The notes under the pieces: model-generated
What the model was told of the DNA's origin: nothing
Seen by the model: the letters and a program-made list of their open reading frames with translations, nothing else
Database searches by the model: none
Assembly: GCA_023898405.1 (NCBI GenBank)
Contig: CP060221.1
Span: forward strand, 2,434,172-2,498,171
DNA length: 64,000 nucleotides
Origin: Myxococcales bacterium
GTDB taxonomy: Bacteria > Myxococcota > UBA727 > JABDBI01
Reading direction: 5' to 3'
Shown: piece after piece, positions 10,986 through 27,093 of the stretch
Position numbering within the stretch: position 1 is the stretch's first letter
Layout of the letters: each line of letters opens with the position of its first letter
Program-made: the position numbers and the translations under genes

Positions 10986-12197
10986 ATGAAACTATGTTTT
11001 GCGGTTATCCTCTTAGTCTTATCTTTTAACTTAAAGGCTATATCACCAAAAAATAATATCACGGCAGGATTTTTTCACAGCATGTTTATAAGTGAAAATG
11101 ATGATCTTTTAGTTTGTGGAAACAACAATAAATGTCAACTGGGTTTGAAAGATAGAACTCCTAGGCCAATATTTGAGAAAATTAATAATGCGCCTAAAAT
11201 AATTGCCCTTAGTGCGGGATGTGGTCACAGTTTATTTATAGATGAAAATTATGATGTTTGGGTTTGTGGAGGTAACGAGTATGGCCAGCTGGGATTAGGA
11301 GATACTATAGATAGAAAGATACTAAAGAAAAATGATAATTTGTCAGGAATAGTTGGTGTTTATGCAGGAAATTTTTACAGTCTATTTCTAGACCAAAGTG
11401 GTCAAGTGTGGGCTTGTGGAAATAACCATTCTGGCCAGCTTGGCTTAGGTGATACTAGAAATAGATGTGCACCAGAAAAAATTAATGTGCCTAAAATAAT
11501 TGCTCTTAGTGCGGGATGTGGTCACAGTTTATTTATAGATGAAAATTATGATGTTTGGGCTTGTGGATATAACTACTATGGCGAGCTAGGATTAGGTGAT
11601 ATTATAGATAGATGGACGCCAGAAAAAATTAATAATTTGTCTGAAATAACTACTGTTTGTGCTGGGAGCTATCACAGTCTGTTTGCAAATCAAAATGGTG
11701 AAGTTTTTGTTTGTGGAAATAACTATCATGGCCAACTGGGACTGGGAAATACCGCAGGTAGACAGACACCAGAAAAAATTAATATGCCTAAAATAATCGC
11801 CATGAGTGCGGGATATGAACACACTTTGTTTATAGATGAAAATTATAAGGCTTGGGCTTGTGGAAATAACTATTATGGCCAGCTAGGGTTAAGGGGAACT
11901 GCAAGTAGGCAAACACCAGAAAAAATTAATAATTTGTCAGAAATAAGTAATGCCTGTGCGGGAAGTTTTCAAAGTCTATTTGTAGACAGGAGTGGAAAAA
12001 TTTTGGTCTGCGGATCTAATGCTTATGGGCAACTAGGTCTAGGTAATCGTTGCTATAAACAAGGCTTAGAAGAAATTGAAAATATTAGGAGCAGCTCGAT
12101 AGGTAAAAAATATGGCAAAAAACCTTTAGATTTATACCAATCCCAAAAATTAACCGAGTCTTTAATTTCTGAGTACACGCAGCAAAGCGATAACTAA
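10986..12197 (+). CDS. Secreted RCC1/BLIP-II repeat beta-propeller protein
   Basis: Signal peptide. About seven repeats of AG.xHSLF.D...V..CG.N.YGQLGLG. Confidence 0.93.
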   Translation: MKLCFAVILLVLSFNLKAISPKNNITAGFFHSMFISENDDLLVCGNNNKCQLGLKDRTPRPIFEKINNAPKIIALSAGCGHSLFIDENYDVWVCGGNEYGQLGLGDTIDRKILKKNDNLSGIVGVYAGNFYSLFLDQSGQVWACGNNHSGQLGLGDTRNRCAPEKINVPKIIALSAGCGHSLFIDENYDVWACGYNYYGELGLGDIIDRWTPEKINNLSEITTVCAGSYHSLFANQNGEVFVCGNNYHGQLGLGNTAGRQTPEKINMPKIIAMSAGYEHTLFIDENYKAWACGNNYYGQLGLRGTASRQTPEKINNLSEISNACAGSFQSLFVDRSGKILVCGSNAYGQLGLGNRCYKQGLEEIENIRSSSIGKKYGKKPLDLYQSQKLTESLISEYTQQSDN

Positions 12198-20503: not shown

Positions 20504-21205
20504 ATGGATATTTCTCTTGCTATCTTGTGTGCACTTTCATTAGAGGCAGAGCCGATCATAGATGCTCTTGATATGCGGGAATCGTTCGACGTTTTTGATG
20601 CGAGGCTTGGGCTGAGAATTTTTCTATCAGAAGACTCAAAAACCGCTTTGGTGCTTTTTGGTAAGTGCCCAAAGTATAAAGTCGATAGAATCGGCACTCA
20701 ATTTGCAACTCTTGCCGCGTGGGAAACCATCAAAGTGATAAACCCTAAAGCTTTGGCGAGTGTTGGCACAGCTGGTGGTTTTAAATCTAAGGGAGCTCAC
20801 ATAGGGGATGTTTTTTTAAGTTGCGGCCCAATTTATTACCACGGGCGGCACATTCCTGTTGAGGCTTATCATGAATTTGAGAAAGGGGCATTTTTGTCTG
20901 CAGATATAAAAGTTCCTCCTGCTATTAAAGCGGGCATTGTTTCAAGTGGAGATGCTGTTTTTGCATCGATTGATGACCATAAAAAAATGCAGCTCTTTAA
21001 TACCGATGCTAAGGATATGGAAGCTGCTGCTGTCGCTGAAGTTGCTTCTCTGTGTCATACACCTATGTTTGCCCTCAAAGCTATTTCAGATTTTGTAGAT
21101 TCAAATATTTCTACCCATGAACAATTCAAAACCAATTATAAATTTGCCATAGAAAGACTTGTAAGCGCTCTCATGAAGCTGGATCTTATCTGTGCGCAAA
21201 AATAG
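20504..21205 (+). CDS. mtnN: MTA/SAH nucleosidase (PNP/UDP superfamily), plant-type signature
   Basis: GTAGGFKSKGAHIGDVFL, SSGD, KDMEAAAVA, KAISDFVD. Confidence 0.8.
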   Translation: MDISLAILCALSLEAEPIIDALDMRESFDVFDARLGLRIFLSEDSKTALVLFGKCPKYKVDRIGTQFATLAAWETIKVINPKALASVGTAGGFKSKGAHIGDVFLSCGPIYYHGRHIPVEAYHEFEKGAFLSADIKVPPAIKAGIVSSGDAVFASIDDHKKMQLFNTDAKDMEAAAVAEVASLCHTPMFALKAISDFVDSNISTHEQFKTNYKFAIERLVSALMKLDLICAQK

Positions 21206-21208
21206 AAT

Positions 21209-22096
21209 TCAAATAGTGCCCATCATAGAAAGATGAAGTTTAAATAATTTTTCTAGACCGCGACTGTAGCGTTTTGTATTAAAACTGCGGAGCAATGCTT
21301 TTTTCTTTTTGATTTTTTTTATGCCTTTATGGTGCTCTTTTTTGAGCGTAGATAAATATTTGTGCTGAGTGTGAGGAAATTTTTCTAGATAAAGAGCCAT
21401 TTCATTAGTGCCATCACATTCTTTTTTTTCTCTTTCAAAGGTGGCGATAAGATTGCCGATACGGCCGAGCCTTTGACCTATTAAAAAAATCTCACGGCAT
21501 ACTCCCAGTTCTTTTTCGTTAAATTTATTGAGCGCCATAAGATCGATCATGCCAGCGGCAACCATACCCATATTGAAAGGACCATAGATTTTGGCTTCGG
21601 TCATGTTTCTGATCGAGGGAAAGGCTGTCATAAGTTCGGAATAACGATTAGCAAGATAAATCTGCCACACATCAAAGAGAAAAATTTCTTGGCATGCTTG
21701 CCAATTGGGCAAACCGTGCAGAATATTTTGAATGTTTTTGATGAGAAGTTGAGTAAGCTCAATAATTTGTTTTTCTTTTTCACTTTGTACTTCCTGGTAT
21801 CCGCACTGACATGGACCGCCAACTTTGTATAAAATTTTTAATAAGCTCGGATTAAAATAATGTGGATTGTCGGCCATATCGTCGAGCAAAGTGATGAGCA
21901 TGCCCAATAAAATTTTAGCCTTGAGTGCTGATTTAAAATAGCTCTCATTAACAGTATCTAGTGTTGTATAGGTATAACCCTTGACAAGAAATCGAGAAAA
22001 CAGAGCTTTTGGACGGTTATCTATGACCGACACATAATGATCGATGAGCATATCGACTTCTATAGTATCGATTTTTTGTTTGTTTGCTTTGGACAT
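21209..22096 (-). CDS. Divergent class I terpene synthase / isoprenoid synthase-like protein
   Basis: LLDDMAD (DDxxD), RIGNLIATFERE (NSE/DTE-spaced NxxxTxxxE) and a C-terminal KRY. Starts 3 bp after the P450 stop. Confidence 0.68.
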   Translation of the reverse strand: MSKANKQKIDTIEVDMLIDHYVSVIDNRPKALFSRFLVKGYTYTTLDTVNESYFKSALKAKILLGMLITLLDDMADNPHYFNPSLLKILYKVGGPCQCGYQEVQSEKEKQIIELTQLLIKNIQNILHGLPNWQACQEIFLFDVWQIYLANRYSELMTAFPSIRNMTEAKIYGPFNMGMVAAGMIDLMALNKFNEKELGVCREIFLIGQRLGRIGNLIATFEREKKECDGTNEMALYLEKFPHTQHKYLSTLKKEHHKGIKKIKKKKALLRSFNTKRYSRGLEKLFKLHLSMMGTI

Positions 22097-22099
22097 TAA

Positions 22100-23302
22100 T
22101 CATCTCTTGCTAAATTTTATCTTTTGACCACTTTTGGGGTGAAGCGTGATGAGCTGCTCTGTTTCTATTGAGTGGCCGACCGGCTCAATGTAAAAATTTT
22201 TACAAAAAATTTGTAAGATAATGCATGCCTCAAGATAGGCGAGTCTTTCTCCAACACATGATTTGTTTCCTAGGCTAAATGGCATAAAAGCTGGATTATG
22301 GTGGCAATCAATAAATCTGTTGGGATCAAAAATATGAGGGTCTTTAAAATAAGTGTGGCTGTTATGAATTTGCTTAATAGCAATGATTATTTGATCGCCT
22401 TTGTAAATGTTTAATCCTTGTATAGAAGTATTTTTTTTAGCTTTTTTTGTCACCATGTAGGCCGGAGGATAGAGCCTAAGGCTTTCTTGATAGATAGCTT
22501 TGGTGAAAATAAAATCATTGGCGATACGGTCTTGATAATGCGCATACCGGGTCAACAGCAAAAAAGTAAAAGCCAAAGATGAAGCTGTAGTCTCATGTCC
22601 TGCAAATAAAAAGGTCATGCATTGATCAATAATATGAGGGCTCTTTGAAAATAAATTTACAATGTTTTTTTCTTGTTTGGATGTCTCTTGCTTGAGCGTT
22701 GAGAGAATAAAGCCTCTGATGGAATTTTTAAGCGCAATTATTTCTTTGTTCTGTCTTGATGGTAACCAAAGCGGTAGTGATATGAGCTGATTGATGCGAT
22801 TGCCACAAATATGGTTGAGCCGTAAAAACTCTTGTCCAACTTTTTTAGAAGAATCTTTATAGTTCACACCCAAAAAAATGCGAAAAGCCGTATTAAGAAT
22901 AAGTTCGGTCATGAGTTCATCGATAGCAATTGCTCTATCATTAGGGATTGAGCTGACATAGGATAAAGCAATTTCTTCGATGACAGCTTGCAGATGAGCC
23001 AAATTATCTTGGCTAAAAATTGCGCGAGATTTTTTTCGTACTTCCTGTGAAGCTTTTCCCTCGAGTTGTACCAGTCCATGCTCACCGGTAATAGGAGTTA
23101 TTTTTTTCAAAATAGTATCGTTTTTACCAAAAGCATCTGCATAGGTGACTAAAATTTCACGAGCAGCTTGAGCGTTAAATACAAATATAAATGCTTTGTG
23201 GCCGATGTGAGATCGTTGAATACCTGGCCCCGAACGAGCCAAGCTATCTAATAATTCGATCGGGTTGCTAAGAAACATTCTTAGCCTTTCAAGGTTATCC
23301 AT
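22100..23302 (-). CDS. Cytochrome P450
   Basis: AGHETT (I-helix), ESLRLYPP (ExxR), FDPNRF, FSLGNKSCVG (heme Cys). Confidence 0.97.
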   Translation of the reverse strand: MDNLERLRMFLSNPIELLDSLARSGPGIQRSHIGHKAFIFVFNAQAAREILVTYADAFGKNDTILKKITPITGEHGLVQLEGKASQEVRKKSRAIFSQDNLAHLQAVIEEIALSYVSSIPNDRAIAIDELMTELILNTAFRIFLGVNYKDSSKKVGQEFLRLNHICGNRINQLISLPLWLPSRQNKEIIALKNSIRGFILSTLKQETSKQEKNIVNLFSKSPHIIDQCMTFLFAGHETTASSLAFTFLLLTRYAHYQDRIANDFIFTKAIYQESLRLYPPAYMVTKKAKKNTSIQGLNIYKGDQIIIAIKQIHNSHTYFKDPHIFDPNRFIDCHHNPAFMPFSLGNKSCVGERLAYLEACIILQIFCKNFYIEPVGHSIETEQLITLHPKSGQKIKFSKR

Positions 23303-23392
23303 GCACTGCTAACAAAATTAGCGGATGCAAACTTCCAGAAAAATTTTAGAGCTTAATAAAAGAACCGTCGCACAGCTGGCAGAGAATGTACG

Positions 23393-23884
23393 TTATTCTT
23401 TTTCTAGAAAAACACTATTCATATGAAGAATGTAATCCTCGTGCCTTATATAAGCTTCCCAGTCAATTCCTTGCTTCTGGGCTTGTTCTTGCAAGCTTGA
23501 ATAACTTGAATCTAAGGTACCCAAAAGATATTGAGAGAAGGGACAATCAAGTTTTGCACTTACTAAAAGAATCTCAATAGCCTGTTTATTTTTTTTAGGA
23601 CCTTGTTTCAGTAAATACAAACCAAGCGAATAGCCCGCAGGAGCATAATTATTCTCCAGAGCTTTTTGAAACCAAAATTTTGTTTTCATGCGACTATATT
23701 TATTCGAAACTTGAGTCATATAATAAGTGCCCAAAAGATACTGAGCTTGAGGGTTTTTGAGCTGAGCTTGCTTTATTAGTTGGCCCAGGCCTTGGGGTTT
23801 TAATGAGAAAGTGGGTCCTGAAAAACTACTTATTGATAAAAGATATGCAAACAAGAGAAGCAAAAAACGCCATTTCAATATCAT
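23393..23884 (-). CDS. Sel1-like (TPR) repeat protein, secreted
   Basis: AQYLLGTYY...WFQKA.E.NYAPAGYSLG and SQYLLG repeats. Signal-like N-terminus from the ATG at 23884. Confidence 0.75.
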   Translation of the reverse strand: MILKWRFLLLLFAYLLSISSFSGPTFSLKPQGLGQLIKQAQLKNPQAQYLLGTYYMTQVSNKYSRMKTKFWFQKALENNYAPAGYSLGLYLLKQGPKKNKQAIEILLVSAKLDCPFSQYLLGTLDSSYSSLQEQAQKQGIDWEAYIRHEDYILHMNSVFLEKE

Positions 23885-24080
23885 TTTTTTCTCGTGAGGG
23901 ATTAAGAACAGCTCAATAAGAATAATAAGCTTGATAAAATTATTCCAACCTAACTTGCTCAAGCCTGGGTATGGGCTCAAAAAAACATCACATATGAAAC
24001 AGTTTTATTGTTCGAAGCTGGCCTTTATGAAAAGACGTCATTATTTTTAGACAGTGCTTTGTGAAACGAAGGGAGAATAT

Positions 24081-26200: not shown

Positions 26201-26397
26201 GTTGAGAAGAATTAAGGCCGTTAAGAGTCTTGTAAACCCTTAAGTGACTTGCCGGTTCCATTACTCCCTCTAAACCTCCTCGTAGCAATTTTTAGGGGGA
26301 GCTTGTACATGGGTAAAAGAGAAGATTGCTGTCATGGTTATTATGAGCCAAAAAACATCAATAATTTATGTGCTTACTCAAAAAAAAGGAAATTTGC

Positions 26398-27093
26398 ATG
26401 AAATTATTTGGATTATTGGCAGGTATTTTAATTGCATTAATTAACATTGAGGGAAGGGCTGCCGAAATAATTGAATTATCTGAAAGCAAAATTGATGCTC
26501 AATGCATGAGTGATTCAGATTTTCAAAGTCTAATAGTAAACATAAATGAAATTAGGAATCTTATTTTGCAGTCTAAATTCATAGAAAACCCTGAGAACAG
26601 AGAGAATTATCGTAAGGAGCGATATGAAGAAGTCTATAAACTATTGAAATCATCACCGCAAAAATATGGCAAATTTAGTCTTGAACAAATAACTGATTTG
26701 TTTTTTAATAATTCGTTTTTTTTTAATTTATTGATAGAAGTTGTTGATTTTGAAACATTAAAAATTATAAAAATATGTGTTTTAATAAATCATAAGCATC
26801 GTTCATGTTATGACTTAAATGAATTTGAATCAGATTTAAGATTAATTGCCCAAAGGGCATTTGATATGGAAATGGAGAGTGCTGAAAAAAAATCTTTTAT
26901 AGAAGAGATTTTTAATTATTGCCTAAGGAATAAAAATAATAAAGCAAAAGGGTATAGTGGAAAGAAAATAGAGAAAATGTATTTAAAAATAATTGAAGAG
27001 AATATTAGAAAACGAAAACCAGACGATGTTCGTGCACCATTAGCGCCACTAAATAAACAATTTAAAATTCAAGAAAAGATAGAGTGGGATTAA
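26398..27093 (+). CDS. Hypothetical secreted protein
   Basis: RBS AAGGA and signal peptide MKLFGLLAGILIALINIEGRA. Very AT-rich. Confidence 0.65.
   Translation: MKLFGLLAGILIALINIEGRAAEIIELSESKIDAQCMSDSDFQSLIVNINEIRNLILQSKFIENPENRENYRKERYEEVYKLLKSSPQKYGKFSLEQITDLFFNNSFFFNLLIEVVDFETLKIIKICVLINHKHRSCYDLNEFESDLRLIAQRAFDMEMESAEKKSFIEEIFNYCLRNKNNKAKGYSGKKIEKMYLKIIEENIRKRKPDDVRAPLAPLNKQFKIQEKIEWD

Follow-up and report, generated by a model that had tools for sequence, protein, structure and literature searches.

A divergent class I terpene synthase-like protein and its cytochrome P450 partner in a Myxococcota-like bacterium and its relatives

Bacterial terpene clusters frequently pair a synthase with a cytochrome P450 (P450). 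In the epi-isozizaene synthase/CYP170A1 (albaflavenone) and pentalenene synthase/PtlI pairs, the two genes are adjacent, co-directional, and tightly coupled. A 64-kb stretch of a Myxococcales bacterium (contig CP060221.1; hereafter, the window) carries a pair of the same layout, but here the P450 gene comes first and the synthase-like gene second, and the P450 is nearest to CYP175A1 (i.e., the closest solved structure by sequence; E = 8.8e-25). On the basis of a predicted structure and conserved motifs, we consider it likely (probability, roughly 0.72) that the pair represents a divergent, single-domain class I terpene synthase in a two-gene, probably co-translated cassette with a P450.

The canonical bacterial cyclases (e.g., hydropyrene synthase [8b4l], T-muurolol synthase [9hqz], pentalenene synthase, and 10-epi-cubebol synthase) resemble the synthase-like protein in having a single all-helical alpha domain of about 300 amino acids (aa), a DDxxD motif and a metal-binding triad about 140 aa apart, and a basic residue (R222 here) before the triad Glu. 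The non-canonical classes (IB and ID/IE/IF; Abe et al. 2024, PMC11234867) resemble it in another respect, as they escape the standard hidden Markov models (HMMs) and yet have a class I-like three-dimensional structure. Some non-canonical class I-like synthases are also clustered with P450s (PMC11234867). Class IB enzymes carry the motifs DYLDNLxD and DY(F/L/W)IDxxED, and class ID enzymes carry D(N/D), ND, and RxxKD (PMC11234867), whereas the family described here has DDxAD and NxxxTxxRE and is set apart from both classes by these motifs.

Class I features of the synthase-like protein

The pair and the motifs of its products are located as follows (all on the minus strand).

21209 to 22096, minus strand: divergent class I terpene synthase-like protein, single alpha domain, 295 aa (open reading frame [ORF] list, AlphaFold2, Foldseek, and family alignment)
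21266 to 21271, minus strand: R276-Y277 of the synthase-like protein (motif position and family alignment)
21401 to 21421, minus strand: acidic extension E226-x-D228-x-T230-N231-E232, right behind the triad (family alignment)
21428 to 21454, minus strand: NSE/DTE-type triad NLIATFERE, residues 215 to 223 (N215, T219, and E223; R222), at the C-terminal end of helix 194-225 (family alignment)
21869 to 21883, minus strand: first metal-binding motif DDMAD, D72 to D76, at the C-terminal end of helix 51-76
22097 to 22099, minus strand: 3-bp spacer from the P450 TGA to the synthase ATG (sequence read)
22100 to 23302, minus strand: cytochrome P450, 400 aa (Pfam p450, E = 1e-49, and signature motifs)
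22250 to 22279, minus strand: P450 heme-binding loop FSLGNKSCVG, with Cys349 as the proximal ligand (motif search)

The earlier note on this DNA had placed the P450 stop and the synthase start 3 bp apart and had read DDMAD, NLIATFERE, and RY in the 295-aa ORF. Both readings stand: the junction is AGA-TGA-tta-ATG, with a gap of exactly 3 bp, and the motifs occupy residues 72 to 76, 215 to 223, and 276 to 277. In relatives, the P450 and synthase ORFs mostly overlap by 4 to 14 nucleotides (nt). The two genes are thus probably read from one transcript with coupled translation. A promoter scan around the cassette scored no better than shuffled sequence and a terminator scan there returned nothing convincing; the probable operon structure is read from the spacing. 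The G+C content across the pair (0.37 to 0.39) is ordinary for the window.

An AlphaFold2 model of the 295-aa protein, built on the family alignment, was all helical (12 helices; pLDDT, 92.9; pTM, 0.91). In the model, DDMAD closes the helix formed by residues 51 to 76, the triad closes the helix formed by residues 194 to 225, and between the two metal motifs the invariant M176-G177 breaks a helix. As modeled, this layout is the canonical class I arrangement (i.e., helix D, kinked helix G, and helix H). In a Foldseek search against the PDB, the best 50 matches were all class I terpene synthases (TM, 0.53 to 0.68; E, 1e-4 to 1e-3; sequence identity in the alignments, 9 to 15%). They included hydropyrene, tolypothrichol, T-muurolol, epi-cubenol, pentalenene, aristolochene, and BcBOT2 synthases, together with ent-kaurene (BjKS), isoprene, and sesterterpene synthases and the class IB enzyme BalTS/beta-prene synthase (5yo8 and 6loo). 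No prenyl-chain synthase/prenyltransferase and no squalene/phytoene synthase appeared among these 50. The isoprenoid-synthase fold presumed in the earlier note was therefore recovered by both the model and the fold search.

A word-indexed search returned 54 homologues, from which a family alignment of 52 sequences (37 to 59% identical to the window protein) was built. The metal-motif residues D72, D73, A75, D76, N215, T219, R222, and E223 are invariant in this alignment, as are K61, F141, D142, N150, E167, M176, G177, D185, R201, Q208, D228, E232, and Y277. Because their key residues are invariant across 52 homologues at this level of divergence, the DDMAD and NLIATFERE motifs are not chance occurrences. 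The N-T-E triad sits 143 aa beyond DDxxD. When 1.84 billion representatives were searched with the profile of the 52 sequences, at least 605 clusters (50% identity) were detected, and for 290 the E value was 1e-30 or lower.

The databases name members of the family as "hypothetical protein," as "isoprenoid biosynthesis enzyme family protein" (Peredibacter starrii WP_321390476.1, NCBI), or, in UniRef, as "Phytoene synthase," the last of these being the name given to the P. starrii homologue. A head-to-head or chain-elongating prenyl synthase (i.e., a phytoene/squalene synthase or a farnesyl diphosphate [FPP]/geranylgeranyl diphosphate [GGPP] synthase) would share the isoprenoid-synthase superfamily fold. 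However, none of the 52 members matched the SQS_PSY or polyprenyl_synt Pfam models, the second motif is N-x3-T-x3-E rather than a second Asp-rich motif, and the top 50 fold matches hold no such enzyme. We rejected the phytoene-synthase and prenyltransferase readings on motifs, Pfam results, and fold ranking, and regard an enzyme of this kind as barely credible here.

Several observations weigh against a class I terpene synthase. None of the curated terpene-synthase HMMs (PF03936 and PF19086) matched the window protein at threshold; its match to Pfam Terpene_synth_C (PF03936) had an E value of 0.072 and a score of 12.8 bits (gathering cut-off, 26.3 bits), with residues 196 to 254 (i.e., the triad region) aligned to profile positions 172 to 234. 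PDB sequence searches with the window protein, the family profile, and the best Pfam-matching member gave nothing meaningful, so the link to terpene synthases came only via structure-based comparison. The TM values of the fold matches, with a root mean square deviation of about 5 to 6 Å, denote a shared fold and not close kinship. No invariant Arg lies between residues 160 and 190 in the 52 sequences, where a pyrophosphate sensor was sought, and the Arg of the RY pair is not conserved (position 276 is S, K, A, D, L, or E in relatives). Finally, no prenyl-diphosphate synthase was seen among the annotated neighbors of the loci surveyed below, nor was any ferredoxin or reductase gene detected next to the pair.

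Some of these departures refine what the earlier note had read. It had reported no Arg at the usual sensor position, about 46 aa before the second motif; the Arg is indeed absent from the window protein, and the position exactly 46 residues before N215 is Lys169, in a column where 33 of the 52 sequences have K and 6 have R. Six residues further upstream, at -52, R163 is Arg in 29 of 52. The terminal RY is present in the window protein and its Tyr (Y277) is found in 52 of 52 members, but this does not extend to the Arg. Instead, helix H carries basic residues that are invariant or nearly so (R201, R209, and R212), and R222 is another. Class I enzymes are described as sharing a conserved effector-triad Arg (PMC11234867); since it is not conserved here, we classed the protein as a variant and not as a plain member. 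The family further differs from the canonical cyclases in having L or V rather than D at the second (non-ligand) triad position and in carrying an E-x-D-x-T-N-E extension that is invariant or nearly so (E226, 51 of 52; D228, 52 of 52; T230, 51 of 52; N231, 48 of 52; E232, 52 of 52).

The lack of conservation of the Arg sensor and the RY Arg, together with invariant residues of the family's own (R201, Q208, D228, E232, D142, E167, and D185), would also suit a terpene-synthase fold used for some other diphosphate-dependent reaction, such as prenylation of a non-isoprenoid acceptor or conversion of a substrate made beforehand by the P450; the P450-first gene order leaves the order of reactions unfixed. 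Such a use appears quite improbable to us, as the complete DDxxD and N-T-E ligand set is typical of ionizing synthases, every top fold match is a terpene synthase or cyclase, and no acceptor-supplying genes (polyketide, indole, or quinone) were seen among annotated neighbors or the ORF families common to many loci.

When members were scanned singly, PF03936 matched 14 and PF19086 matched 15 of the 52, at sub-threshold or marginal levels, and no further Pfam family recurred in more than 3. An NCBIfam scan of the 295-aa protein gave nothing relevant. Standard HMM-based terpene-synthase models thus miss this family. The best Pfam match of any member (E = 1.6e-5) was to the plant-type C-terminal domain (PF03936), and plant-type structures (isoprene synthase, 3n0f/3n0g; AtTPS18, 7bzc) matched the fold of the window protein at TMq values of 0.64 to 0.68. 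Unlike plant-type synthases, the family is bacterial and lacks N-terminal beta/gamma domains, and its sequence similarity to them is below threshold. The plant stretch behind the DTE motif, which we take to read ...E-x-x-R-G-(D/E)-x-x-(N/K)-S, resembles ...E-x-x-E-G-D-x-T-N-E in the family; we treat this as a lead and not as a test.

P450 linkage and extended clusters in relatives

The Pfam p450 match of the window P450 covers residues 20 to 391, and all signatures are present (I-helix AGHETT234, ESLR273, PNRF327, and heme loop FSLGNKSCVG342). The protein is weakly similar to the CYP170A1 (76 bits) and PtlI (62 bits) models and belongs to no curated equivalog. When one genome of each GTDB species was scanned, 41 loci of the synthase family were found, 38 of which had at least 1.2 kb of upstream sequence and were informative for linkage; P450s were sought in them by tblastn with the window P450. 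Of the 38, 33 have a P450 gene immediately before the synthase gene and on its strand, so the linkage proposed in the earlier note is conserved. Contig-edge P450 fragments occur in two of the three loci with short upstream sequence, and metagenomic relatives (54 to 59% identical) also hold the pair. The partner P450s form two groups (38 to 57% and 28 to 33% identical to the window P450), which suggests that more than one P450 lineage serves the synthase family.

The five exceptions are two Nitrospirales loci, one deltaproteobacterial locus, and two "Candidatus Uabimicrobium" loci. An FAD_binding_3 monooxygenase takes the place of the upstream P450 in the Nitrospirales locus whose neighbors were annotated (the other being L023) and is encoded immediately downstream of the synthase in the deltaproteobacterial locus, and the two Uabimicrobium loci have a tandem synthase paralogue. 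The exceptions, too, suggest either an oxygenase partner or a paralogue. The two tandem paralogues of these Uabimicrobium loci (L025, 6740 to 8852; L026, 6607 to 8852) lie next to a gene for a Ser/Thr protein kinase; a protein of 293 aa encoded close by has an alpha-alpha toroid repeat of the prenyltransferase/terpene-cyclase kind (Pfam Prenyltrans, E = 4e-10).

Clustering of all ORFs at the loci revealed further components. A divergent LysR-type regulator is present in 24 loci, and a downstream FAD oxidoreductase (about 420 aa; weakly geranylgeranyl-reductase/UbiH-like) is present in 18 of 37 informative loci, followed in 16 loci by a glutathione S-transferase (GST). The sole NCBIfam match of this GST was IsoI (isoprene-epoxide glutathione S-transferase), over the full length (E = 3e-42; 145 bits against an equivalog cut-off of 300). 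In 11 loci that have neither the FAD enzyme nor the GST, a member of the GFA family is encoded instead (E = 7e-25; fold of the glutathione-dependent formaldehyde-activating enzyme). The Peredibacter cluster also has a Rieske oxygenase, and the third Uabimicrobium locus (L037) holds a complete P450-synthase-FAD-GST set. Examples with the FAD oxidoreductase and IsoI-like GST, or with the GFA-family protein, are as follows.

L004, 5045 to 7023: extended-cluster genes
L022, 8867 to 9277: extended-cluster genes
L048, 8831 to 11630: extended-cluster genes

Since two unrelated glutathione-dependent families alternate at one position, the extended clusters suggest a thiol-addition step on an oxidized (possibly epoxidized) terpene. 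The full-length likeness of the GST to IsoI of isoprene degradation likewise suggests glutathione opening of a terpene epoxide, but the GST differs from IsoI in scoring below the equivalog cut-off, in being absent from the window, and in belonging to a biosynthetic-looking rather than a catabolic cluster. By tblastn, no copy of the LysR, FAD oxidoreductase, GST, or GFA genes was found anywhere in the window, and none of the extended-cluster genes lies beside the pair in its nearest relatives (L001, L003, L042, and L043). Minimal organization is therefore a property of the window's clade: the earlier note's description of a minimal cluster holds for that clade, with its P450-synthase core only, but not for most relatives, which have larger clusters.

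At E values of about 1e-40, the family profile reached a sister clade of 300- to 350-aa and multidomain proteins. In four of these (P0304, P0310, P0315, and P0267; profile E, about 1e-38 to 1e-43), the family domain is C-terminal and fused to a complete or degenerate 1-deoxy-D-xylulose 5-phosphate (DXP) synthase; the N-terminal part of P0304 is a complete one (Pfam DXP_synthase_N, E = 1.8e-88, with Transket_pyr and Transketolase_C). DXP synthase (DXS) is the first enzyme of the methylerythritol phosphate (MEP) pathway, and its fusion to the family domain provides independent, Rosetta-stone-type support for an isoprenoid function. In P0260 and P0261, the domain is fused to a response-regulator receiver plus PilZ (cyclic di-GMP [c-di-GMP] binding) or to PilZ alone, which suggests signal-controlled terpene synthesis. 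Most sister-clade members shown keep DDxAD and NxxxTxxRE, and D228 is invariant, including in the DXS- and PilZ-fused relatives. No adjacent P450 was found in the two sister-clade contexts examined. Unassigned ORFs beside sister-clade members were checked as possible paralogues of the synthase family and proved not to be.

The DXP synthase fusions would also suit a product drawn straight from MEP-pathway flux, and hence a class I synthase making a small or acyclic olefin or alcohol (i.e., an isoprene-like hemiterpene or a compound of the linalool/nerolidol/farnesene type) that the oxygenase epoxidizes and the GST, in the larger clusters, opens. Isoprene synthase is among the best fold matches, 295 aa is small for a terpene synthase, and the GST both matches only IsoI in NCBIfam and alternates with the glutathione-dependent GFA. 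Against this, 145 bits is well under the IsoI cut-off and denotes family-level similarity only, cyclases of comparable size rank equal or higher in the fold search, and the window's clade is without any GST or GFA. We therefore hold this version of the class I assignment to be unlikely.

Most of the 41 loci (27) are from Bdellovibrionota (Bdellovibrio, Pseudobdellovibrio, Bacteriovoracaceae, Halobacteriovoraceae, and Oligoflexia). Three are from "Candidatus Uabimicrobium," three from "uncultured Myxococcales" metagenome-assembled genomes (MAGs), and two from Nitrospirales MAGs; single loci come from Legionella norrlandica, from gammaproteobacterial, Cryomorphaceae, Pseudomonadota, and deltaproteobacterial MAGs, and from one unclassified MAG. 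At the locus nearest to the window (L001; 55% identity), the nitrilase, P450, and synthase genes follow the window's order, and MAG GCA_020430645.1 and metagenome contigs of other samples carry a 100%-identical synthase. Classes IE and IF are known from actinomycetes, and the 41 loci include no actinomycete; the family may nonetheless coincide with one of these classes. The pair is an uncharacterized variant of the class I terpene synthase-P450 cassette that lies outside all curated terpene-synthase families, its class being assigned from the predicted fold and the motifs.

No published characterization of the family was found in the literature searched, which leaves out most subscription journals, so that this absence is not proof; nor did that literature yield a report of terpenoid chemistry in predatory bacteria. 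The sub-threshold HMM scores, the empty PDB sequence searches, the hypothetical or generic names, and the lack of a paper agree with the earlier note's view of an uncharacterized subfamily. Among functional surveys of bacterial terpene synthases, the largest covered 334 enzymes drawn from IPR034686 and mentions neither Bdellovibrio nor Legionella (PMC12009305). Surveys start from curated families, and a family below their thresholds has probably been skipped.

Neighboring genes and genome setting

On its upstream side, the pair is preceded by the following ORF.

23393 to 23884, minus strand (full ORF, 23393 to 23980, 195 aa): Sel1-like repeat ORF, secreted-looking, 163 aa from the ATG (weak Pfam Sel1)

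Position 23884, at which the earlier note ended its feature, is an internal ATG (MILKWRF...) of this ORF, and an identical public contig has the gene called as 163 aa from that ATG. The Pfam Sel1 match (E = 0.08; 14 bits against a cut-off of 30.7) covers one repeat, at residues 77 to 111; three AxYxLG-type repeats in total and a signal-peptide-like N terminus are readable in the sequence. By tblastn, no homologue of the ORF lies beside the pair in the 41 loci. The earlier note's Sel1 protein is thus adjacent as stated, with a Pfam score below the cut-off, but it is not a conserved partner (0 of 41 loci).

The pair is convergent with a PNP/MTA-nucleosidase-like gene that ends a rimP-nusA-ylxR-infB-rbfA operon. 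On the side away from this gene lie a nitrilase gene, truA, a GNAT gene, and a GlmM-like (phosphoglucosamine mutase) ORF, which was named from its sequence by eye. The product of the convergent gene (PNP_UDP_1; 20504 to 21205, plus strand) best matches methylthioadenosine/S-adenosylhomocysteine (MTA/SAH) nucleosidase and, more weakly, HpnG (hopanoid-associated phosphorylase; E = 3.8e-9) and futalosine hydrolase, all below cut-off. Elsewhere in the family, the pair occurs without this PNP_UDP_1-family gene at its side. Three neighboring genes (Sel1-like, PNP-like, and nitrilase) were considered as parts of the system and rejected; of these, only the nitrilase gene recurs, in the closest relatives alone, as local synteny. 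The operon, truA, and the GlmM-like ORF confirm the housekeeping surroundings that the earlier note had described. The infB product (IF-2) has its best named relatives, at about 70% identity, in "Myxococcaceae/Myxococcota bacterium" MAGs, and 2.5 Mb is the length of the longest recorded contig bearing the synthase.

The earlier note's picture of a genome ridden with insertion sequences (ISs) likewise agrees with five IS6-family transposase copies in the window. These ORFs, of 242 aa each, lie within 10 kb (41762 to 42490, minus; 44380 to 45108, plus; 47132 to 47860, minus; 49038 to 49766, plus; 50973 to 51701, plus), the assignment being based on a scan of one of the five (DDE_Tnp_IS240, E = 4e-42). 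They point to a local IS expansion and possibly bracket composite elements. Such IS richness, together with the tailoring genes lost from, or never present in, the window's clade, would be expected of a decaying or catalytically dead remnant in an IS-eroded genome. However, the synthase-like protein is full length and has kept every family position that is invariant (25) or nearly invariant (45), its gene remains tightly coupled, at 3 bp, to that of an intact P450, and relatives that are just 46 to 59% identical share this minimal pair. Decay is accordingly a very improbable explanation.

A 403-aa RCC1-repeat protein is encoded at 10986 to 12197 (plus strand; Pfam RCC1, E = 8e-69; RCC1-like domain, E = 3e-82). 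RCC1 is eukaryote-like, and intracellular bacteria (Legionella, for example) are known to have domains of this kind; the protein is consistent with a host- or prey-interacting lifestyle. That the organism is host associated is plausible. A 241-aa ORF (26368 to 27093, plus strand) with a signal-peptide-like start and no Pfam match lies in an AT-rich stretch (G+C content, 0.34) amid housekeeping genes. An Rfam scan of the window detected no RNA families and hence no rRNA that could serve for taxonomy.

Proposed pathway and wider meaning

Starting from the fold, the invariant metal motifs, the intact P450, and the conserved coupling, we infer the substrate, reaction order, product, and biological role of the proposed terpene synthase-P450 cassette as follows. 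D72/D76 and N215/T219/E223 would coordinate a trinuclear Mg2+ cluster, to which a prenyl diphosphate drawn from primary metabolism would bind through its diphosphate group. Basic residues would contact the diphosphate in place of the Arg sensor and the RY Arg, the candidates being K169, R201, R209, R212, and R222, with Y277. Ionization would give an allylic cation, to be cyclized or quenched in a hydrophobic pocket. The Cys349-ligated P450, served by redox partners encoded elsewhere, would then hydroxylate or epoxidize the hydrocarbon. Most relatives may process the product further, with the FAD oxidoreductase and the IsoI-like GST or with the GFA-family protein, under the divergent LysR regulator, while in the window's clade the pathway would end at the oxidized terpene.

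FPP is the prenyl diphosphate that bacteria generally make for primary metabolism. For this reason, and because no prenyl-diphosphate synthase was seen among the annotated neighbors, we tentatively favor FPP as the substrate, on weak grounds, and hence a sesquiterpene as the product.

A divergent synthase beside a P450 is unsurprising in itself to a specialist. The compact and well-conserved two-gene unit should nevertheless be easy to express, and a branch of class I enzymes without an invariant Arg sensor and RY arginine would be useful for asking what is essential to diphosphate activation. The family recurs mainly in predatory bacteria; besides the Bdellovibrionota, its carriers include a planctomycete that phagocytoses (Uabimicrobium), a Legionella, and the present Myxococcota-like lineage, with its small genome and many ISs. 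A broader, speculative interpretation, which we think unlikely as a whole, is that an HMM-invisible clade, nearly always coupled to an oxygenase and mostly to a glutathione-dependent enzyme, and concentrated in predatory or host-dependent bacteria, makes a structurally new oxidized (often thiol-conjugated) terpenoid for predator-prey or host interaction, with the sister clade tied to MEP flux and c-di-GMP signaling. The family points toward terpenoid chemistry in predatory bacteria, for which the glutathione-linked tailoring and the DXS and PilZ fusions may serve as further leads.

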